Positions 1-58,894 of a stretch of 61,021 nt of DNA are shown here, in pieces. The position numbers and the translations under genes were made by a program. Source of the DNA: Pseudomonadota bacterium (GTDB lineage: Bacteria; Pseudomonadota; Alphaproteobacteria; Rickettsiales; SXRF01). Below the pieces are notes generated by a model. That model was given only the letters and a program-made list of their open reading frames with translations. It did no database searches and was not told the DNA's origin. The stretch's first letter is position 1, and the number at the start of each line of letters is the position of its first letter. The stretch lies in the NCBI GenBank assembly GCA_028873525.1, contig JAGWIM010000002.1, forward strand, positions 1 through 61,021, read 5' to 3'.

Positions 1-2593
<2,593 letters not shown>

Positions 2594-2610
<17 letters not shown>

Positions 2611-2926
2611 TGGGATCGAGTTTTTTGAGTAACGCGGTGACCGCGGCTTTCAATGACTGAATGTCGTGCTGAATCTTAGGAATATGAATGTCATCGTAAG
2701 CATGTACAAGTACATGGCGTGTCGCCACAATTTTGCTCCATGGCACTTCGGGTGTCTGTTGTTTTGTTGCTTCCGATAATTTATTGACCGCCTCGCCGAT
2801 AATCTGCATTTGCCGCAGCATCATGTTCCAACGCAATTCATCGGCTGAATCCGTAGTATAATATTTCTCGATTTTGTGAATAGCATCGAGAATGTCATAA
2901 AGGTGATGGGTGTCCGTTGCTTTCAT
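2594..2926 (-). CDS. hepT: HEPN-domain (DUF86) HepT-type toxin
   Basis: 110 aa carrying the R-x4-H HEPN motif ([10 protein letters not shown]). Its start overlaps the stop of the upstream nucleotidyltransferase by 4 nt (ATGA). Its own stop lies 17 nt inside alaS. Confidence 0.85.
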
Positions 2927-3231
2927 AGGGGAGTAACATCATCCTGAATAGTGCGGGCAAAACGAGGTTTCATGCCGTCGTCGCATACGACGTTCACTTC
3001 CCGCCCGAGCACATCTACGCAATCCATATACATTCCGCCTAAATCAAACAGGCTGCAATCCGCCAGCGGATGCACCAGGAAATCCACGTCGCTGTCCGGC
3101 CTGGCATCCCCGCGCGCCACCGAGCCGAAGACGCGGATCGAGTCCGGATCGATTTTATACTGCCGCGCCAGGGACTGGATTTGCGGCTTGAGCTTGCGGA
3201 GTTCTTCGAGGGTCATGCCGCCAGCATACAA
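2923..3231 (-). CDS. mntA: Minimal nucleotidyltransferase (MntA-type antitoxin)
   Basis: Carries the GSVARGDARPDSDVDFLV motif (G-S-x-x-R-G ... D-x-D) typical of MNT antitoxins. An alternative start is the ATG at 3216. Confidence 0.85.
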   Translation of the reverse strand: MYAGGMTLEELRKLKPQIQSLARQYKIDPDSIRVFGSVARGDARPDSDVDFLVHPLADCSLFDLGGMYMDCVDVLGREVNVVCDDGMKPRFARTIQDDVTPL

Positions 3232-3306: not shown

Positions 3307-4347
<1,041 letters not shown>

Positions 4348-4729
4348 ATGCGGAACTCTCCCTGATAATCATCCATTTAATAAATACTTAAGGCCAATTT
4401 ACACGGATTATCCGGCAGCGCAATGGGGAATTATTAGTTTTGCCAGATCTGGACCATCCTCGCATTGGCCGCGCATACCAATTGTATGTTTCAGCAGATA
4501 GTGCGGGAACGGATCATATCACTGTATTGAAAAAAGGCGGCATTGAATGGCAGTTTTCCTTGATTTTTTCGCAGTGTAATTGTTGATGATTTTGTCCTGA
4601 TTGTCGTTATCTATCACCTTGAACTGGACGCTTAAATAAGTTACGCAGGAGGCCTGTTGAACCGCGATGAGGCTAAGACAAATATCACCCCCGCCCGACT
4701 CAGGGCATTGCCAGTGAGGACGTGTTTAG

Positions 4730-5332
4730 ATGAACGAAATAGAGGCATTTAACCAAGCGCTTTTTTTAAAAATCAACGCCAATGCGGCGACTCCGGTCTG
4801 GGAAATCAATGCGGCGATATTCATCGCCGAGTATCTGATTTACCTGATGCCATTGATCCTGTTGTACATGTGGCTATGGGGAGATCAGGCGCGGCGCAAT
4901 CTGGCGATAAAGGCTTGTCTTGTCGCTATGATTGCCCTTGGGGCCAATCAGTTGATTGGCCTTGCGTGGCAACATCCCCGTCCGTTCGTGATCGGGCTTG
5001 GCCACGACTATCTGCAACATGCGCCGGATTCCTCTTTCCCAAGCGACCATGCGACCGTATTTGCGGGCATTACCCTGACATTGCTGTTTGCGCGCGCCCG
5101 ACGGCTTGGTTCAGTTACGCTGCTACTGGGGACATGCGTGGCATGGGCGAGGGTTTTTCTAGGCATTCATTTTCCGCTGGATATGCTGGGGGCCGTCGTG
5201 GTGGCATCTGTCGTCTGGACGGGCGTTTCACCTGTCTGGCATCGGGGTGGAGCCATGTGTACGCAACTGGCTGAACGGCTCTACCGTAAAGTCATGGCGC
5301 GGCCGATCGCCATGGGATGGACGCGGCGTTAA
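4730..5332 (+). CDS. PAP2-family phosphatase (undecaprenyl-diphosphatase-like membrane protein)
   Basis: PAP2 motifs are present: WQHPRPF, FPSDHAT and ARVFLGIHFPLD. Several hydrophobic helices are evident. Confidence 0.8.
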   Translation: MNEIEAFNQALFLKINANAATPVWEINAAIFIAEYLIYLMPLILLYMWLWGDQARRNLAIKACLVAMIALGANQLIGLAWQHPRPFVIGLGHDYLQHAPDSSFPSDHATVFAGITLTLLFARARRLGSVTLLLGTCVAWARVFLGIHFPLDMLGAVVVASVVWTGVSPVWHRGGAMCTQLAERLYRKVMARPIAMGWTRR

Positions 5333-5395
5333 ATAAAACGCTGAATTTTCATGCTTTCATTGATTATTAAGAAATTCCGTGGTACAATTGCGCCC

Positions 5396-28753: not shown

Positions 28754-30242
<1,489 letters not shown>

Positions 30243-30343
30243 ATTTCAGTATGTTGGGGATCATCCTCAGCCTCTGCCTGATTAAACGAATCATCTTACA
30301 TGACATGCCGCCGCCTGCGCCTAAATGCTCACACAAACTAAAA

Positions 30344-30380
30344 AGGCCTCGGCGTAAGCTGGGGCCTTTTTGTTTGTTTG
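30344..30380 (+). terminator. Rho-independent terminator about 115 nt after the 16S 3-prime end
   Basis: The hairpin AGGCCTCggcgtaagctGGGGCCT is followed by TTTTGTTTGTTTG. Confidence 0.65.
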
Positions 30381-30410
30381 TGGCAATGGCCTATGTTATT
30401 CATAAAGCGC

Positions 30411-30653
30411 ATGAAAACGACCCGCTATTTTGAAGAAGACGTATTAGGTAAAAAACGTCCTTATATGAAACGTGAGTGGTGCATGGAGGCAATTCAGTCT
30501 CCTGACCATAAAATGCTTCAACCGGACGGCAGAGTGCGCTATTATAAATACATTGCGGAAGTACAGAAATTCGTTCGCGTTATTACGCTTGCAGATGGTG
30601 AAACCGTACATAACATATTTTTCGACCGCCGCTTTAAACCTAAGGATCATTGA
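30411..30653 (+). CDS. Small conserved hypothetical protein, probable partner (toxin-like) of the downstream DUF2283 protein
   Basis: 80 aa: MKTTRYFEEDVLGKKRPYMKREWCMEAIQSPDHKMLQPDGRVRYYKYIAEVQKFVRVITLADGETVHNIFFDRRFK. It resembles small proteins that often sit next to DUF2283 genes. The region is low-GC, and only 2 nt separate its stop from the next ATG. Confidence 0.6.
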   Translation: MKTTRYFEEDVLGKKRPYMKREWCMEAIQSPDHKMLQPDGRVRYYKYIAEVQKFVRVITLADGETVHNIFFDRRFKPKDH

Positions 30654-30655
30654 AC

Positions 30656-30871
30656 ATGAAATTCCATTACGATAAGGAAACCGACTCACTTTATATCGAT
30701 TTTATCGATGGACCGGGTGTCGATAACGTCATTGTCACTGATGACATTGTCGCTGACATCGACGTACAAGGGCGTTTAGTTGGGCTGGATATCCAACATG
30801 CCAGCCAGCAATCCGATTTGAGCAATTTTATCGTAGACGGCATGAATCCTGTTCTAAGGCCAGCGATATAA
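30656..30871 (+). CDS. DUF2283-domain protein
   Basis: MKFHYDKETDSLYIDFIDGPGVDNVIVTDDIVADIDVQGRLVGLDIQHAS matches the DUF2283 pattern (YDxExDxLYI...D...GxxVGIEI). Confidence 0.8.
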   Translation: MKFHYDKETDSLYIDFIDGPGVDNVIVTDDIVADIDVQGRLVGLDIQHASQQSDLSNFIVDGMNPVLRPAI

Positions 30872-30875
30872 ATTC

Positions 30876-30914
30876 ACCTGCGGCTGGATTACCTCCTTTC
30901 TAAGGATTTTGTTT
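30876..30914 (+). repeat. 39-bp direct repeat, copy 2 (an ectopic copy of the 16S 3-prime end)
   Basis: Perfect copy of 30204-30242. It begins 5 nt after the DUF2283 stop and ends 27 nt before the next ATG. Confidence 0.95.
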
Positions 30915-30941
30915 TTTGCGTAACAACTTTAAGGAGAAAAT

Positions 30942-31496
30942 ATGCTAAATGATCTTGAAGATAGAATTATTAAAGGTGCGAAGAAAGCGCATATCACCTA
31001 TTTAGAAATGAATGACTATTATCTTCATCATGCACCTGAGCACTTTCTCCAAAATGAGATTGCCCGTACTATTTGGCAGAAGGGCAATGGCAATGATATT
31101 TATATCGATAAGTCAAATGCTCAGGTGCTAAAAGAATTGGATTCTACCAATAAAAAAGGACGTCCTCGGGATGATGCCAGTAAGCGGTTTGATATCACGG
31201 TCTTTAAGCGCTCTGAAAAGCAAATTAAAGCTGTGATCGAGATAAAACGTGGGGATCATATAAGTTTTCAGTCACTGAGAAAGGACACAAAAAAAATAGA
31301 ACACTCTGCAAAATCTCCGAATGGAGCAAAGCTGGGCTATCTTTTAGTATATTCTGTAAGAAAAAAAGAGGAAAAAATTCGAGATGATTTCAAAAAATGG
31401 GAAAAGCGGCTGAAATGGGAATTGAGAGAGAATATAATTGAATCGGATGGCAAATGGACGTGGGGTATCGGATTATTTAAATTTAGCCTACGCTAG
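30942..31496 (+). CDS. Hypothetical protein with a PD-(D/E)xK nuclease-like motif
   Basis: 184 aa, very AT-rich, with a strong AAGGAG Shine-Dalgarno sequence 6 nt upstream. Candidate catalytic motifs are ...RFDITVF... and ...AVIEIKR... (D ... E-x-K). A terminator follows. Confidence 0.6.
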   Translation: MLNDLEDRIIKGAKKAHITYLEMNDYYLHHAPEHFLQNEIARTIWQKGNGNDIYIDKSNAQVLKELDSTNKKGRPRDDASKRFDITVFKRSEKQIKAVIEIKRGDHISFQSLRKDTKKIEHSAKSPNGAKLGYLLVYSVRKKEEKIRDDFKKWEKRLKWELRENIIESDGKWTWGIGLFKFSLR

Positions 31497-31503
31497 ATGA
31501 AAA

Positions 31504-31545
31504 GGCCTCCGTGAAAACGGGGGCTTTTGTTTGTCATTTTTTCAG
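31504..31545 (+). terminator. Rho-independent terminator, sequence-related to the one at 30344-30380
   Basis: The hairpin GGCCTCCGtgaaaaCGGGGGCT is followed by TTTGTTTGTCATTTTTT. It shares the AAAAGGCCTC...GGGGC-TTTTGTTTGT framework with the first terminator. Confidence 0.6.
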
Positions 31546-31663
31546 ATGGTATTATAAATACCGTTACTTATAACCTGTAGTCGCTAGGAGTGGGAGATGT
31601 TTACCATTGCCGGAGGAATAATACTTGCGGTGCTTATTTTGTGCGTAGTGCCTCTCCTCTTGC

Positions 31664-31933
31664 GTGCCGTTAGTGATACCGTTCAGTACCACGCCGCCCG
31701 GTGCCGAACAGCCCTTTCATGTCCGCTTCGAACCGGCGATCTACCCGTTCCTGCATCAGCATCTGCCGAGCTGGGCGAAGTGCAACATGATCAACACGGT
31801 ATCCTGCCAGCGGCTCGACCGCGTTCGGATAGGCAAAAACTACCTTTCTCCACGCATCAATGATGAAGATTTATCAAGGATTTACAAGGCTATGCTGACC
31901 GTCTTCGGGCAAAGGCTTGACAAAGTGCGGTGA
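31664..31933 (+). CDS. Hypothetical protein or gene remnant
   Basis: The 89-aa ORF has high third-position GC, unlike its AT-rich neighbours, and a terminator follows at 31975-32005. The overlapping ORF at 31597-31863 has a good SD (GGAG) and a TM-like N-terminus, so the region may be a frameshifted remnant. Confidence 0.3.
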   Translation: MPLVIPFSTTPPGAEQPFHVRFEPAIYPFLHQHLPSWAKCNMINTVSCQRLDRVRIGKNYLSPRINDEDLSRIYKAMLTVFGQRLDKVR

Positions 31934-31974
31934 AAGCCGTATAGTTACTATGTAATCCGTTAAATCGGGCTTGA

Positions 31975-32005
31975 GACCCCGCCTCCGAGCGGGGTCTAGC
32001 TTTTT
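31975..32005 (+). terminator. Rho-independent terminator
   Basis: The hairpin GACCCCGCctccgaGCGGGGTC is followed by TAGCTTTTT. Confidence 0.55.
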
Positions 32006-32065
32006 CACCCACCCCTCCACCCTCTCGCCATCCCTCCCCGGCAGCACCCGCGCAAACGGCGCTTT
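32002..32065 (+). repeat. 64-bp direct repeat, copy A (flanks the brnTA cassette)
   Basis: Aligns with 32696-32759. The last 32 bp (32034-32065, CTCCCCGGCAGCACCCGCGCAAACGGCGCTTT) are identical to 32728-32759. Confidence 0.9.
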
Positions 32066-32114
32066 CATAAGTATTTGATTAATAAAATTATTATTCTAAT
32101 AGCAAAATCAACCC

Positions 32115-32143
32115 TTGCCTCGCGTATTTACATTGTGTAAATA
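32115..32143 (+). promoter_or_regulatory. Candidate promoter for brnTA (TTGCCT-17 nt-TAAATA)
   Basis: The -35-like TTGCCT lies at 32115-32120 and the -10-like TAAATA at 32138-32143, ending 7 nt before the brnT ATG. This would make the transcript leaderless or give it a very short leader. Confidence 0.3.
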
Positions 32144-32149
32144 TGCCAG

Positions 32150-32428
32150 ATGGATTATACTTGGAATGAAGATAAAAACCGCCGTAACGTCCAGCAACAT
32201 GGAATCGCCTTCAAAGATGCGATACGCATTTTTGACGGCCCGACCGTCGAGCGGGTGGATGACCGGTTTGAATACGGAGAAATCCGGGTTTATGCCATCG
32301 GCGTGGTAAACGGATTGGAAATCACGGTGATATACACCGACGGGGACAATGACGAACGACGCATTATTTCAGCATGGAGATCAGAACCGCATGAACGACG
32401 ATATTACTGGCAACAACTCAACACCTGA
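32150..32428 (+). CDS. brnT: BrnT-family (DUF497) ribonuclease toxin
   Basis: MDYTWNEDKNRRNVQQHGIAFKDAIRIFDGP...RIISAWRSEPHERRYY matches the BrnT pattern (WDxxKxxxNxxKHGVxFxEA...RIISARxAxxxE). Confidence 0.85.
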   Translation: MDYTWNEDKNRRNVQQHGIAFKDAIRIFDGPTVERVDDRFEYGEIRVYAIGVVNGLEITVIYTDGDNDERRIISAWRSEPHERRYYWQQLNT

Positions 32429-32687
32429 TCCAGTCACCGATTGGGAACGGCTTCGCCGTCTCGATGCGACGGAAATACGGGCAGCCATTGATGCCGATCC
32501 AGATGCTCACGCTACGGACGAAGCATTCTGGAAGGATGCCAAGGTGGTGCTACCGCGTCCAAAGGAAACCATTACAATGCGGCTCGATGCCGACCTGTTG
32601 TCCTGGTTACGGCAGGAACGCGGCTACCAGACCCGCATTAACGCCATCCTTCGTGCCTACATGAAAACCCACAGTTCGCACGCGTAA
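32391..32687 (+). CDS. brnA: BrnA-type antitoxin (DUF4415-like)
   Basis: Its C-terminal ITMRLDADLLSWLRQERGYQTRINAILRAYM is the BrnA/DUF4415 signature. I chose the ATG at 32391; the ORF extends back to 32349. Confidence 0.8.
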   Translation: MNDDITGNNSTPDPVTDWERLRRLDATEIRAAIDADPDAHATDEAFWKDAKVVLPRPKETITMRLDADLLSWLRQERGYQTRINAILRAYMKTHSSHA

Positions 32688-32695
32688 TCATAAAG

Positions 32696-32759
32696 TTTTC
32701 GCCCACCACCTCCACCCCCCGCTATTCCTCCCCGGCAGCACCCGCGCAAACGGCGCTTT
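32696..32759 (+). repeat. 64-bp direct repeat, copy B
   Basis: See copy A. It begins 9 nt after the brnA stop. Confidence 0.9.
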
Positions 32760-48724: not shown

Positions 48725-49108
48725 ATGCCGAACCGTCCCTTGTCACCGCATCTTTCCATTTACCGCCCGCAGATTTCCTCGGTGCTTTCCATCCTGCACC
48801 GCCTCACCGGCCTGGCGCTGTTCGCCGGCACGGCGCTGGTGGTCGCCTGGCTGTGCTCGGCGGCTTACGCCCCGGCTTTTTACGCGACGCTGCATGACGG
48901 GATGGATTCGTTTATCGGGCGTCTCTGCCTGCTTGGCTGGACGCTGGCGTTTTACTGCCATTTCTGCAACGGCATCCGGCATTTGTTCTGGGACATCGGC
49001 ATGGGATTCACGTTGCCGCAGATGGCGCGTTCCGGCTGGGCGGTGATTGTGCTGACCATTGTATTCACGGCGCTGACCTGGGGATTCGTCAGCGCGCTGG
49101 CGGGGTAA
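48725..49108 (+). CDS. sdhC: Succinate dehydrogenase cytochrome b556 subunit
   Basis: MPNRPLSPHLSIYRPQISSVLSILHRLTG is the canonical SdhC N-terminus. Confidence 0.9.
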   Translation: MPNRPLSPHLSIYRPQISSVLSILHRLTGLALFAGTALVVAWLCSAAYAPAFYATLHDGMDSFIGRLCLLGWTLAFYCHFCNGIRHLFWDIGMGFTLPQMARSGWAVIVLTIVFTALTWGFVSALAG

Positions 49109-49521
49109 TGATGACATCCGGTTCGCCTCTTCGCACACGGCTGGCCAGAGTGAAGGGGCTTGGCGCCGCGCATCGCGGCGTTTCGCACTGGTGGTGGCAG
49201 CGCGTGACGGCGCTGGCGCTGATTCCGCTGTCGTTGTGGTTCGTCGCCTCGCTGGTGTCGGCGCTCCTGCTGCCGGACGTGATGAAAGTGGCGCAATGGT
49301 TCGCCTCGCCGGTCAATGCGCTGCTGATGATAGCGCTGCTGGCGGCGCTGTTCCTTCACGCCAAATTGGGCGTGCAGGTGATTATCGAGGATTACGTGCA
49401 TTCCCCGGTGATGAAATATACATTGCTGCTGCTGAACATGTTTATTTGTTTTGCCTTCGCTGCGGTTTGCATCCTGGCGGTGCTGAAACTGCATATGATT
49501 GATGTCGGGGCGGGGGCGTAA
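49108..49521 (+). CDS. sdhD: Succinate dehydrogenase membrane anchor subunit
   Basis: Carries [18 protein letters not shown]. The start overlaps the sdhC stop. Confidence 0.9.
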
Positions 49522-51305
49522 TGGCGCAGGCATATCCGATTATCGATCACTACCACGATGTCGTCGTTGTCGGAGCGGGCGGCGCGGGTTTGCGCGCGAC
49601 GTTCGGCATGGCGGCGGCGGGACTCAATACGGCGTGCGTGACCAAGGTTTTCCCGACGCGCTCGCACACGGTGGCGGCGCAGGGCGGCATCTCGGCGGCG
49701 CTGGGCAACATGGGCGCGGACGACTGGCGCTGGCATATGTACGACACGGTCAAGGGCGGCGACTGGCTGGGCGACCAGGACGCCATCGAATATATGTGCA
49801 AGAACGCCATGGACGCCGTTATCGAGCTGGAGCATTACGGCGTGCCGTTCTCGCGCACGCCGGAAGGCAAGATATACCAGCGCCCGTTCGGCGGCATGAC
49901 GACCGAATTCGGCAAGGGCACGGCGCAGCGCACCTGCGCCGCCGCCGACCGCACCGGACATGCCATCCTGCACACGTTATATACGCAGGCGCTGAGGCAT
50001 CACGCGCAATTCTTCGTTGAATATTTCGCCGTTGATTTATTGATGGACGAAGAAGGCGCCTGCCGCGGCGTGCTGGCATGGAACCTCGACGACGGCACGA
50101 TGCACCGCTTCAACGCGCACACGGTGGTGTTGGCCACCGGCGGCTATGGCCGCGCCTATTTCTCCTGCACCAGCGCCCATACCTGCACCGGCGACGGCGG
50201 CGGCATGGCGCTGCGCGCGGGTTTGCCATTACAAGATATGGAGTTCGTGCAGTTCCACCCGACCGGCGTCTACGGCGCCGGGATGCTGATTACCGAGGGC
50301 GCGCGCGGCGAAGGCGGGTATCTGGTCAATTCCGAGGGCGAGCGGTTCATGGAACGCTACGCGCCACATGCGAAGGATCTGGCCTCGCGCGATGTCGTGT
50401 CGCGGGCGATGACGGTGGAAATCCGCGAGGGCAGGGGGGTGGGCGAACATAAAGATCATATCTATCTGCATCTCGATCATCTTGACCCGGAAGTGCTGCA
50501 TGCGCGGCTGCCGGGCATTTCCGAAACCGCTAAAATATTTGCCGGCGTTGATGTGACCAAGCAGCCGATCCCGGTGCTGCCGACCGTGCATTATAATATG
50601 GGCGGCATTCCGACCAATCATCACGGCGAAGTGGTGACGCTGCATAAAGGCAATCCCGAAACGATCGTGCCGGGACTGATGGCCATCGGTGAGGCTGCCT
50701 GCGTTTCGGTGCATGGGGCTAACCGCTTAGGCTCTAACTCGCTGCTGGATTTAGTGGTCTTCGGCCGCGCCGCCGCCATCCGCGCCGCCGAGACCATTAA
50801 ACCGCACACGCCGCATAAACCGCCGGTTTCGGTGGATAAGGCGCTCTCAAGGTTTGACGGCATCCGGCAATCCTCCGGCGCGCAGCCGACCTCGCATATC
50901 CGCCGCGCCATGCAGCGCTGTATGCAGAACCATGCCGCCGTTTTCCGCGAGGATAAAGTGCTTTCCGAAGGCACGCAGCAGATGCAGGACATCTGGAAGA
51001 ACTTTGGTCAACTGGGCATTTCCGACCGCTCGCTCATTTGGAACAGCGATTTGGCCGAAGCGCTGGAGCTGGATAATTTGCGCTCGCAGGCGCTGGTGAC
51101 CATCGCCGGTGCGCTCAACCGCCAGGAAAGCCGCGGCGCGCACGCCCGCGAGGATTTCCCCGACCGCGATGATAAAAACTGGATGAAGCATACGCTGGCA
51201 TGGCTGGATGAGGCGGGAAAAGTCGTCATCAACTACCGCCCGGTGCATCTCAATACGCTGTCCAACGAAGTGCAGCCCATTCCGCCGAAGGCAAGGGTGT
51301 ATTGA
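49521..51305 (+). CDS. sdhA: Succinate dehydrogenase flavoprotein subunit
   Basis: 594 aa with [23 protein letters not shown] (the FAD-linked His) and [13 protein letters not shown]. Confidence 0.98.
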
Positions 51306-51306
51306 T

Positions 51307-51591
51307 ATGCGACTTGAACAACTCCGCCGGTATAAACCGCAAATCCTCGCCATCGCGCAGGAGCACGGTGTCGGCAACGTGCGCGTGTTCGGCTCGGTGG
51401 CGCGCGGCGAGGCGGACGACGGAAGCGATGTTGATTTGTTGGTAAGCATTGAACGCTTATTGGGTTGGAAATATTTTGGGCTGGAACCGGCGCTGGAAGA
51501 TTTGCTGAAGCACAAAGTGGATGTCGTTTCGGACGAAGCCATCAGGCCGCGTTTGCGCGAGCGTATTTTGAAAGATGCCATTCCTTTATAA
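51307..51591 (+). CDS. mntA: Minimal nucleotidyltransferase (MntA-type antitoxin), second copy
   Basis: MRLEQLRRYKPQILAIAQEHGVGNVRVFGSVARGEADDGSDVDLLV is a paralogue of the protein at 2923-3231. Its ATG lies 1 nt after the sdhA stop. Confidence 0.85.
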   Translation: MRLEQLRRYKPQILAIAQEHGVGNVRVFGSVARGEADDGSDVDLLVSIERLLGWKYFGLEPALEDLLKHKVDVVSDEAIRPRLRERILKDAIPL

Positions 51592-51605
51592 AAAATCAGG
51601 CCTTT

Positions 51606-51946
51606 ATGAGTAATCAGGAATATAAAGATAATGAACTTTTATATCATATTCTTGAGGCTATCGAGAATGTCGCTGCGCATCAATCCGGCGCGTGTGCGAA
51701 GTTTACTATTGAAAGAGCCATTATTTATGAGTTGGTGATAATCGGCGAGGCGGTGGGTGATTTATCCAAAGCGCTCAAAGAATCCTTCCGCAGGTGCCGT
51801 GGCAGGTCATTGCCGATACGCGCCATAAAATGGTACATGACTATGAGGATGTATCTTCGCGGGTGGTTTGGAATATAGTGGAAGAGCATCTGCCTGAATT
51901 GAAGCGTAACGTTGAGAATATTATCAAAGAAAAGCAGGATAAATAA
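51606..51946 (+). pseudogene. hepT: HEPN/DUF86 HepT-type toxin gene with a 1-nt frameshift
   Basis: The first frame reads MSNQEYKDNELLYHILEAIENV...IIGEAVGDLSKALKESF and then runs out of frame. From nt 51788 the -1 frame continues PQVPWQVIADTRHKMVHDYEDV...[18 protein letters not shown], carrying R-x4-H at 51821-51838. TTCCGCAG looks like TTCCCGCAG minus one C. The stop lies 1 nt before the sdhB ATG. Confidence 0.75.
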
Positions 51947-51947
51947 C

Positions 51948-52745
51948 ATGGCAGAACTCAGGCTTCCCCCCAATTCCCGCGTCGGCAAGGGCAAGACCTT
52001 CAAGGCTCCCGAGAAGGCCAAGCGCGTCAAGGCGTTCAATATTTACCGCTGGGACCCGGACGATGTGGACGATAAAGGCAAGCCGAAAACCCCGCGCATG
52101 GACCGCTATGAAGTTGATGTGGGTAATTGTGCGCCGATGGTCTTGGACGCGCTGATTAAAATCAAGGACGAGGTGGATTCCACGCTCACCTTCCGCCGTT
52201 CCTGCCGCGAGGGTATCTGCGGTTCCTGCGCCATGAACATCGACGGCACCAACACGCTGGCCTGCATCAAGCCGATTGAGGATGTTTCGGGCGACGTGAA
52301 TATTTATCCGCTGCCGCATATGCAGGTGGTGAAAGACCTGGTGCCGGACATGAACCATTTTTACGCGCAGTACGAATCCATCCAGCCCTGGCTGCAGACG
52401 GAAACGCCGGCGCCGGGCGGCGAGCGTCTGCAATCGCCGGAAGACCGCGCCAAGCTGGACGGCCTGTACGAATGTATTTTATGCGCCTGCTGCTCGACCG
52501 CTTGCCCCAGCTACTGGTGGAATTCCGATCGGTTCTTAGGCCCGGCCATATTGCTGCAGGCTTACCGCTGGATTATTGATTCACGCGATGAGATGACCGG
52601 CGATCGGCTCGACAATCTCGAAGACCCGTTCCGCCTTTACCGCTGCCACACCATCATGAACTGCGCCAAAACCTGCCCCAAGGGCTTAAACCCGGCCAAG
52701 GCGATTGCCGAAATCAAAAAGCTGATGGTCGAAAGGGCGGTGTGA
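51948..52745 (+). CDS. sdhB: Succinate dehydrogenase iron-sulfur subunit
   Basis: The three Fe-S cluster motifs are present: [29 protein letters not shown] and [18 protein letters not shown] chose the start MAELRLPP at 51948. Confidence 0.97.
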
Positions 52746-58621: not shown

Positions 58622-58894
58622 TTGGCCAGAATTAAAGGCAGAAAGCGCGAACGTGGTATAGAAGAACTTGAACTGTTACTGAATAAATCAACCATTACTG
58701 TCCAGCCATTTCAGTCCAATCACTTGAATATCGCCCGCGAGGCATATACCCGCTACGGCAAAGCCAGCGGCCATCCGGCCAAGCTCAATTTCGGCGATTG
58801 CTTTTCCTATGCTCTGGCGAAACATCGCAACGATATACTGCTTTGCAAAGGCGATGATTTTTCCAGGACGGATATCAAAGTCGTCGCTTATTAA
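58622..58894 (+). pseudogene. vapC: PIN-domain VapC toxin remnant (N-terminus missing)
   Basis: The C-terminal part is typical of VapC: AYTRYGKASGHPAKLNFGDCFSYALAKHRNDILLCKGDDFSRTDI. The N-terminal catalytic Asp region is absent, an in-frame stop lies at 58577, and there is no room for a vapB upstream. Confidence 0.6.

Follow-up and report, generated by a model that had tools for sequence, protein, structure and literature searches.

The 61,021-nucleotide stretch analysed here (positions 1 to 61,021 of contig JAGWIM010000002.1, assembly GCA_028873525.1, from an alphaproteobacterium of the Rickettsiales lineage SXRF01), referred to below as the window, carries a toxin-antitoxin (TA) pair between the succinate dehydrogenase genes sdhA and sdhB. 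The pair consists of mntA, which encodes a minimal nucleotidyltransferase (MNT) antitoxin, and hepT, which encodes a HEPN toxin and whose reading frame is broken by one base. The original prediction, made from the letters of the window, had described an MntA/HepT pair that fills the sdhA-sdhB junction with 1-nt gaps, and the open reading frame (ORF) list and Pfam matches confirmed this with exact coordinates, the spacers sdhA/mntA and hepT/sdhB being 1 nt each. The locus comprises the following features.

48725-49108, plus strand: sdhC, from the ORF list and Pfam Sdh_cyt (two Sdh_cyt matches lie over sdhC/sdhD).
49108-49521, plus strand: sdhD, from the ORF list and Pfam Sdh_cyt.
49521-51305, plus strand: sdhA, with its TGA at 51303-51305; Pfam FAD_binding_2 and Succ_DH_flav_C.
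51307-51591, plus strand: mntA, from ATG 51307 to TAA 51589-51591; intact, 94 aa, minimal nucleotidyltransferase antitoxin.
51583-51607, plus strand: 18 extra nucleotides specific to the window, CCTTTAT-AAAAAATCAGG-CCTTTAT, from alignment.
51606-51946, plus strand: hepT, from ATG 51606 to TAA 51944-51946; toxin gene, frame broken by one base.
51606-51787, plus strand: N-terminal part of hepT, residues 1-60 in the native frame, from PF01934 and alignment with relatives.
51783-51790, plus strand: frameshift site, seen as a single-column gap against five relatives.
51788-51946, plus strand: C-terminal part of hepT in the shifted frame, with the RX4HXY motif, from PF01934.
51936-51939, plus strand: AGGA, a Shine-Dalgarno-like element for sdhB, read from the sequence.
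51948-52745, plus strand: sdhB, 265 aa, with its ATG at 51948; Pfam Fer2_3 and Fer4.

The G+C content over hepT is 0.43-0.47, compared with ~0.6 in the flanks. The distance from the mntA stop codon to the hepT start codon amounts to 14 nt and is due to the 18 extra nucleotides; in the window's closest relatives, this boundary is an ATGA overlap. Across the lineages analysed, mntA-hepT spacing was found to be -4 nt in six pairs and +1, +6 and +8 nt in others, compared with +14 nt in the window. The insertion was considered as a possible second lesion, a reading that was toned down in view of the +1, +6 and +8 nt spacers of intact pairs and the preservation of both window ORFs. An internal promoter created by the insertion was likewise rejected, as a single 9/12 match was present (51568-51596) and the counts of promoter-like sites did not exceed those in shuffled sequences.

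Class I HepT/MntA systems are defined by neighbouring PF01909 and PF01934 genes, with the motif GSX10DXD in MntA and RX4HXY in HepT (Yao et al. 2020, PMC7641770). MntA adds three adenosine monophosphates (AMPs) to the tyrosine of RX4HXY, and this modification neutralises the HepT RNase (PMC7641770). The gene order in the window fits Class I, with the MNT gene upstream of, adjacent to and on the same strand as the HEPN gene. The product of mntA was shown to match PF01909 (NTP_transf_2; E = 1.5e-13, 51.4 bits versus a cut-off of 21) and also PF18765, and to carry the GSX10DXD motif as GSVARGEADDGSDVD at residues 29-43 (51391-51435), a motif that is kept in all relatives. In addition, it was aligned end to end with PDB 1WOT (E = 2.3e-20) and matched the PADLOC defence-candidate family PDC-S09 (E = 8e-31). 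The RX4HXY motif is present in the downstream frame of hepT as RHKMVHDY (51821-51844) and is kept in all relatives, with residues R73, H78 and Y80 of HepT being invariant across 37 homologues.

As written, no single ORF of the window encodes a complete HepT, since the PF01934 domain is spread over two frames: the N-terminal part (frame 51606-51878) covers profile positions 1-50 at 16.6 bits, below the cut-off, and the C-terminal part (frame 51794-51946) covers positions 79-120 (E = 2.4e-11, 43.8 bits). A one-base repair of hepT yields a protein of 113 aa that matches PF01934 with 68 bits over positions 2-120. Judged by these domains, the locus is a member of the family by descent with a disrupted toxin gene. 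A search of PDB sequences with HepT (phmmer) returned no match, and a fold search was therefore used instead. The AlphaFold model of P0001, an intact protein that is 87% identical to the repaired HepT, was shown to be a five-helix bundle with a pLDDT (predicted local distance difference test) of 90.3, and its top 11 PDB matches are all HepT/HEPN toxins, 6M6U, 7BXO, 5YEP, 8XEH and 7AE8 among them. Foldseek assigned these 11 matches probabilities of 0.94-1.0 and TM-scores of 0.55-0.62, with up to 0.72 for 7AE8_A, but the E-values are weak (0.04-0.3). The best NCBIfam matches are NF047752 (MntA_antitoxin, 44.6 bits) and NF047751 (HepT_toxin, 34 bits), and the pair is accordingly placed in the type VII TA family at the level of domains and motifs, not at that of equivalogs. 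The identification as MntA/HepT made in the original prediction is thus borne out by Pfam domains, both motifs and gene order, and the pair is best described, from its predicted proteins, as a diverged but typical Class I type VII module.

Alignment with five close relatives showed that one base is absent at 51786/51787, between the codons TCC (Ser60) and CCG (Pro62), the window reading TCC T-T CCG CAG GTG CCG TGG at the break. The same column holds a Tyr codon in four of these five relatives (TAT CCG, TAT CCA, TAT CCC and TAT AAA) and CAT AAA in the fifth, L001 (loci from other genomes carry L numbers throughout). The site as written in the window is TCCTTCCG, and the intact-codon alternatives are TCCTATCCG, TCCTTTCCG and TCCTTCCCG; the relatives favour the A of TAT, outside any homopolymer, as the putative missing base, with T or C also being compatible with the frame. 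The earlier placement of the break at ~51788 was correct to within 3 nt, whereas the CCC that had been expected there, though frame-compatible, is unsupported by the relatives. The break does lie, as had been proposed, upstream of an intact R-x4-H-x-Y motif in a readable downstream frame, as indicated by Pfam and motif matches. The broken frame ends at TAG 51876-51878, 70 nt before sdhB, and RX4HXY is never read in frame; the public record of the window annotates a 50-aa C-terminal fragment of hepT as a protein. In all other respects hepT is clean, with all invariant family positions kept and a ratio of non-synonymous (dN) to synonymous (dS) divergence (ω) of 0.07 against L006; downstream of the break, dN and dS against the same relative are 0.05 and 0.96, respectively. 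The frameshift is unique to the window, as each of the nine other lineages with a readable HepT has an intact one.

The original prediction had listed low-level frameshifting among its explanations. On such a reading, a -1 (or +2) shift made by some ribosomes near 51786 would yield a low level of full-length HepT; the two hepT frames overlap over 51761-51878, making a shift geometrically possible, and low toxin expression would suit a TA system. However, an X_XXY_YYZ heptamer is absent from the whole N-terminal part of hepT, no homopolymer of at least 5 nt that might support transcriptional slippage is present anywhere in the gene, the shift occurs in none of the nine relatives, all of which are in frame, and the conserved sequence is restored only by a shift within ~3 nt of the site. 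As slippery heptamer, long homopolymer and a relative with the shift are all lacking, programmed recoding is unsupported and is regarded as extremely improbable.

To place the module in context, a search was performed with the repaired HepT, and the relatives retrieved were then read for gene context. Five close HepT relatives were identified (87, 84, 80, 62 and 51% identity), all of them intact and 112-113 aa in length, with the next matches at 44% or less. All five are located directly upstream of sdhB or of an M48 peptidase gene followed by sdhB (M48-sdhB), and downstream of sdhA wherever that flank is readable. With MntA as the query, ~40 clusters were returned (94-aa proteins, 59-86% identical to it), of which about 30 lack a placed context. 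The eight relatives of MntA with readable context (71-86% identity) were all found to sit in the sdh slot, and four of these (L090, L091, L094 and L097; 71-80% identity) are additional to the relatives from the HepT search. The gene orders are given below.

L001: sdhCDA-mntA-hepT-sdhB-APH-RNaseH-bactofilin, synteny as in the window.
L003: sdhCDA-ORF-mntA-hepT-M48-sdhB.
L006, L007 and L008: short contigs with the same hepT-sdhB junction.
L090: sdhCDA-ORF162-mntA-(contig end).
L091: ORF-mntA-hepT-mntA-hepT-M48-sdhB.
L094: sdhCDA-ORF129-mntA-hepT-ORF200-sdhB.
L097: sdhCDA-mntA-hepT-sdhB.

Downstream of hepT, the next gene follows at a spacing of between -8 and +2 nt in these lineages. An apparent loss of hepT in L097 and L098, where 333 nt without a called gene follow the MNT gene, was rejected, as the DNA is identical to that of L099 and hepT is intact; the gene remained uncalled in L097 because its stop codon overlaps the sdhB ATG (8-nt overlap). 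A scan of Joint Genome Institute (JGI) metagenomes with the MntA alignment returned a sole, unrelated match (37%). The original prediction had named a universal, conserved and functional insert in relatives as evidence against itself, and this holds in part: all placed close relatives of the module do occupy the same slot, with HepT intact, but the module is not universal.

Two of the short contigs depart from this pattern in part. In L006, the ORF that follows hepT (410-1129) matches sdhB over ~44 aa only and diverges thereafter (34% identity overall); this contig of 1.1 kb is probably a chimera and was left out of the sdh trees. In L007, a remnant of 17 codons that resembles the sdhB 5' end (MVEFRLSPHSKTGKGAL*) is located at 268-320, directly before mntA and overlapping its ATG, with no sdhA in the preceding 260 nt, which indicates that the left boundary of the module differs between lineages.

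The slot was also examined independently of the module, by means of a scan with sdhB that covered one genome per species and yielded six close representatives (L009-L014; 80-86% identity; labelled as Rickettsiales or Alphaproteobacteria metagenome-assembled genomes, MAGs). The taxonomic placement made in the analysis rests on such NCBI labels of the nearest MAGs. The module is present in none of the six, which count among the seven closest relatives, and neither is a contiguous sdhA-sdhB arrangement. An M48 lipoprotein peptidase gene was found upstream of sdhB in L009, L010, L011, L012 and L014, receiver-domain proteins are encoded in the gap of L009 and L013, and a small Cys-rich ORF of 109 aa with a signal-like N-terminus is present in L014 (4842-5171) and in L003 (4382-4711). 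In L100 and L101, which are the closest relatives of the window (sdhA 90%, sdhB 92%), the cargo is a gene for a 135-aa MscL (L100 4581-4988), with spacers of 9 nt to the preceding sdhA and 12 nt to the following sdhB. Pfam and NCBIfam provided no confident family for the 109-aa ORF, for the 129-aa (3602-3991) and 200-aa (4622-5224) ORFs of L094 or for the 162-aa ORF of L090 (3512-4000); the 200-aa ORF showed weak matches to glycine-zipper/OmpA-like lipoproteins. Overall, the slot is filled by some cargo gene in all clade members examined except L041.

Beyond the clade, an sdhA-sdhB gap of more than 200 bp with unrelated ORFs inside was observed in 20 of the 65 loci in which both genes were found, and ~15 further loci have no sdhA upstream of sdhB on the fetched stretch. 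The premise that sdhCDAB is normally contiguous, on which the original prediction had built, is therefore weak in this group, and module-free members of the clade also carry cargo. The sdhA-sdhB junction is thus, as gene content across these genomes suggests, a reused and variable cargo slot and not the site of a one-off invasion.

Two individual loci add to this picture of the junction. In L010 (3400-6001), M48-sdhB is present without sdhA within 6 kb upstream, a 539-aa FAD-dependent protein being encoded there instead, so that the sdh genes are split in some clade members. In L052, a Sphingomonadaceae MAG, the 1.4-kb sdhA-sdhB gap contains an 89-aa ORF (2353-2622, minus strand) that has, by eye, the look of a BrnA/CopG-type antitoxin; TA-like cargo in this gap may thus not be confined to the clade.

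Comparison of substitution rates revealed purifying selection on both genes of the module, with ω against relatives of 0.07-0.13 for mntA and 0.07-0.30 for hepT. The dS of the module to its relatives is at least 0.87 and is as saturated as that of sdhA and sdhB between the same genomes. Dating by dS was rejected, as saturation (at least 0.8) applies even to the closest relative, L100, and dN comparisons alone are informative. In trees of sdhA+sdhB and of sdhB, the module-bearing lineages fall into three well-supported groups (L001+L094, 89%; L008+L097, 100%; L003+L091, 98%), with module-free lineages interleaved among them: L014 groups with L003/L091 (100%) and L013 with L001 (90%).

Across lineages, identity was found to be 64-91% for MntA and 30-88% for HepT, and the module does not track its host, as close sdh genes are combined with distant HepT proteins in two pairs of loci: L001 and L094 share 94% identity in sdhA, 76% in MntA and 40% in HepT, and L097 and L008 share 94% in sdhB and 35% in HepT. 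Repeats illustrate how such variation can arise: L091 carries two mntA-hepT pairs in tandem with a period of ~620 nt, and its M48 gene is fused to a further, third copy of the mntA 5' end (604, 1223 and 1846); L003 contains a 55-nt direct repeat, 96% identical, of the mntA start at the M48 start (4706-4760 and 5334-5388). The M48 genes of L003 and L091 begin with approximately the first 17 codons of mntA (MNLATLR.FKPQ…), followed by a lipoprotein-like signal peptide. By its sequence, this fusion resembles what would result if the last unit of an mntA-hepT tandem array had been truncated and joined to M48. The first 139 nt of the two L091 mntA copies (605-743 versus 1224-1362) are 91% identical, compared with 72% for the proteins overall, which suggests gene conversion at the 5' end of these copies.

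The original prediction had envisaged a selfish module embedded in a contiguous operon, and a recent insertion of a foreign MNT-HEPN module into sdhCDAB in this lineage, followed by inactivation of the toxin, would be in keeping with the low G+C content at third codon positions (GC3) of the window hepT (0.46, compared with 0.76-0.77 for sdhA/sdhB), with the presence of MscL in the slot of the closest relative, L100, and with the patchy distribution of the module across the clade. However, hepT is AT-rich in every lineage (GC3 of 0.27-0.55, compared with 0.59-0.72 for mntA and 0.67-0.82 for the sdh genes), and its low GC content is therefore no mark of recent arrival; selection that keeps translation of the toxin low, or repeated exchange, could lie behind the lasting AT bias of hepT. 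For mntA as for hepT, the nearest relatives all occupy the same slot of related genomes, the module dS equals that of the host genes in size, and the filled slot of all examined clade members but L041 indicates that the operon was not contiguous beforehand. Moreover, no integrase, transposase or att-/attC-like site was detected at the module, the Pfam-identified neighbours being an ABC transporter, the sdh subunits, APH and RNase H, and the 1-nt junctions leave no room for the recombination site that an integron or other site-specific cassette would be expected to have. A recent insertion from outside is consequently considered very unlikely, and the same evidence (shared slot and purifying selection) speaks against the selfish module of the original prediction. 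Replacement within the clade by homologous recombination is possible, and would represent turnover of the slot, not foreign invasion. Taken together, these comparisons describe the module as an old resident of a variable slot, apparently maintained by purifying selection, and not as a recent invader.

An imperfect 22-nt direct repeat (17/22 identical, 77%) was noted at the two ends of the junction, at 51276-51297 (sdhA 3' end, PIPPKAR) and 51970-51991 (sdhB 5' end, PNSRVGKG). It was rejected as an insertion scar, as both copies are conserved coding sequence that is also present in module-free genomes; it could at most represent microhomology that favours rearrangement at the junction, or chance.

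With regard to expression, no terminator-like site was detected inside the module and the junctions leave no room for one, so that mntA, hepT and sdhB would be read from the sdh transcript; the earlier proposal that transcription of sdhB must pass through the module is consistent with this arrangement. The AGGA element at 51936-51939 lies within the C-terminal codons of hepT, 8 nt before the sdhB ATG, and the relatives are also purine-rich at this position (GGA, GGGA or AGGG). As the frameshift ends translation of hepT 70 nt before sdhB, any coupling by termination and reinitiation would be lost, the ribosome-binding site being retained.

The explanation that we favour, with moderate confidence, is that of an old Class I type VII cassette in a cargo slot of the clade, the hepT of which was recently broken in this genome. 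According to this explanation, the 640-bp segment would be one such cassette in a lineage-specific sdhA-sdhB slot of an uncultured alphaproteobacterial clade, the cargo of which consists of small co-oriented genes with spacers of -8 to ~+12 nt (one or two MntA/HepT pairs, M48, receivers, MscL and unassigned ORFs). Transcription of the cargo presumably starts at the sdh promoter, and translation of sdhB would start from a ribosome-binding site inside the 3' end of hepT. HepT is predicted to be a HEPN RNase, the RX4HXY tyrosine of which MntA would be expected to oligo-AMPylate. The history of the module would include tandem duplication and divergence, loss in some lineages but not others and, probably, homologous exchange within the clade via the conserved flanks. 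In this genome alone, one base would have been lost at 51786/51787, leading to a stop at 51876-51878 without the catalytic motif, and the presumed consequence is a toxin null with mntA as an intact orphan, the lesion being very recent.

That the frameshift is a real and very recent knockout of the toxin is considered likely. In the window, ORFs as long as 1657, 1046, 715 and 653 aa are uninterrupted and no further gene is obviously split, which indicates a low indel error rate in the contig; no homopolymer of at least 3 nt is present at the frameshift site, the relatives pointing to an A lost from C-TAT-C; and two further toxin genes of the window, MazF-like and PIN, are degraded, showing real decay of toxins on the same contig. 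Alternatively, the base may be missing through an assembly or consensus error, in which case hepT would be intact in the organism and the cassette fully functional like those of its relatives. This alternative is regarded as unlikely, if far from negligible: apart from one base, hepT is clean, with its invariant positions kept, an ω of 0.07 and a dN of 0.05 downstream of the break, the nine other lineages are all intact, and the sequence derives from a single 61-kb contig of a public record with no second independent assembly on record. With the nearest relative at a dS of ~1, no trace would be expected of a frameshift acquired within the final few percent of the branch, and the clean hepT therefore favours an error only weakly. 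The homopolymer error suggested in the original prediction is weakened by the TAT codon of the relatives, which leaves a plain assembly error as the form to be considered. Of the recent inactivation with a retained antitoxin, also suggested there, the intact mntA and the broken hepT were both confirmed.

Several points weigh against the explanation as a whole. A consensus or assembly indel may be present in the window sequence, hepT shows no other sign of decay, and an artefact would look identical. Exact look-ups of the window MntA and sdhB found no other contig, and the two contigs listed with window proteins are probably one NCBI record deposited twice, not an independent assembly. The NCBIfam equivalog cut-off of 60 bits is reached by neither MntA nor HepT. 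As the module itself was the query by which module-bearing loci were retrieved, their number does not translate into a frequency within the clade. Finally, support for the deep nodes of the sdh trees is poor and dS has reached saturation, such that descent with losses and exchange within the clade are inseparable.

The cassette might also be functionally integrated with succinate dehydrogenase, with HepT processing the polycistronic sdh mRNA, for example, or with ATP-dependent AMPylation by MntA tying the RNase to the respiratory and energy status of the cell. In that event, such control would be lost in the window lineage; the idea itself is independent of the frameshift being real. The same slot in all eight MntA lineages read at 71% identity or more, the tight junctions, the purifying selection and the sdhB ribosome-binding site in the hepT tail of several lineages are in line with such a role, as is the fact that no such arrangement was found described in the literature. 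Conversely, many clade members lack the module and carry unrelated cargo (M48, MscL or receivers) in the same slot, which argues for a permissive site rather than a specific partnership, and HepT is hypervariable. Functional integration is therefore viewed as improbable. We hold as equally doubtful the broader proposal of a dedicated non-integron slot in which MntA/HepT has long been kept and tied to succinate dehydrogenase, with the mntA 5' end and the sdh flanks serving as recombination handles by which HepT alleles would be swapped.

Other features of the window, several of them TA-like, are listed below.

2923-3231 (MNT) and 2594-2926 (HepT), minus strand: second MntA/HepT pair, intact, the two genes overlapping by 4 nt; motifs GSVARGDARPDSDVD and RHVLVHAY.
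28754-30227: complete 16S rRNA gene, standing alone.
30230-32700: low-GC cluster of TA-like genes directly downstream of the 16S rRNA gene.
30650-30871: DUF4258-like ORF and DUF2283, within the TA-like cluster.
~31500-31933: MazF/PemK-like toxin gene broken over three frames, matching Pfam profile positions 39-105 only.
~32100-32687: BrnT/BrnA pair, apparently intact.
58622-58894: PIN-domain ORF matching profile positions 49-119 of 120, the N-terminal half being missing or in another frame.

The second MntA/HepT pair belongs to the same family as the sdh pair but is not in an sdh context, and the two are 41% (MntA) and 32% (HepT) identical; this pair is an old paralogue, and cross-neutralisation is therefore not implied. 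An Rfam search revealed no 23S or 5S rRNA gene and no tRNA gene anywhere in the 61-kb contig, and the absence of 23S and 5S beside 16S indicates that the rRNA genes are unlinked. Upstream of the PIN-domain ORF an antitoxin gene would not fit, and this ORF is probably the remnant of a toxin gene.

The locus offers a natural system in which to follow the persistence of TA pairs that form part of a housekeeping transcript rather than of a mobile element, the conservation of an enzymatic antitoxin while its toxin diversifies, and the tolerance of an essential operon to internal gene turnover. It also holds a lesson for annotation, as the hepT of L097 went uncalled on account of its 8-nt overlap with sdhB and a 50-aa hepT fragment of the window was called a protein. 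No paper describing an MNT/HEPN pair in an sdh operon was found in the literature library that was searched.

Among characterised systems, the prototype is HepT/MntA of Shewanella oneidensis (SO_3166/SO_3165; PDB 5YEP, 6M6U and 7BXO; PMC7641770), which shares with the window the pairing of PF01909 followed by PF01934, the common strand and the motifs. The P0001 model retrieved Shewanella HepT chains as its best PDB matches (probability 0.97-1.0), with ~16-17% identity in the structural alignment. The window proteins are shorter (94 aa for MntA and 113 aa for HepT, compared with ~130 residues for the HepT chains), and the window pair is embedded in sdhCDAB with a frameshifted hepT, whereas the Shewanella pair stands alone. 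HEPN-MNT of Aphanizomenon flos-aquae (PDB 7AE2, 7AE6, 7AE8 and 7AE9) shows a similar HEPN fold, with TM-scores of up to 0.72 (7AE8_A), and the MNT chains 8XEH_E and 8XEO_A from the HEPN-MNT system in Legionella pneumophila (PDB 8XEH and 8XDJ; PMC11586414) match MntA weakly (E ~3-5e-3). Both systems are distant in sequence and occur in other genomic contexts, the similarity being at the level of the fold only, with weak E-values. PDB 1WOT, a 98-aa 'putative minimal nucleotidyltransferase', shares the core GSVARGEA…SD.DLLV and the C-terminal …PRLRE…L..AIPL with the window MntA, and is a structural-genomics entry without demonstrated antitoxin function.

As a protein system, the window pair is ordinary, being a diverged Class I pair with a toxin gene that is freshly broken or mis-assembled, and the comparisons give as yet no evidence that it would work differently from other MntA/HepT pairs. 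Its location is a different matter: the earlier description of an unusual genomic context stands as far as nesting in an essential operon is concerned, and is qualified by the recurrence of the arrangement across the clade. In Escherichia coli, relA-mazEF likewise places a chromosomal TA pair directly downstream of, and co-transcribed with, a core gene, although at the end of the unit and with promoters of its own. By comparison, the genes on either side of the window pair encode two subunits of one enzyme, the essential downstream gene would depend on read-through, and it is this nesting, recurring across a clade in a slot shared with other cargo, that is unusual.

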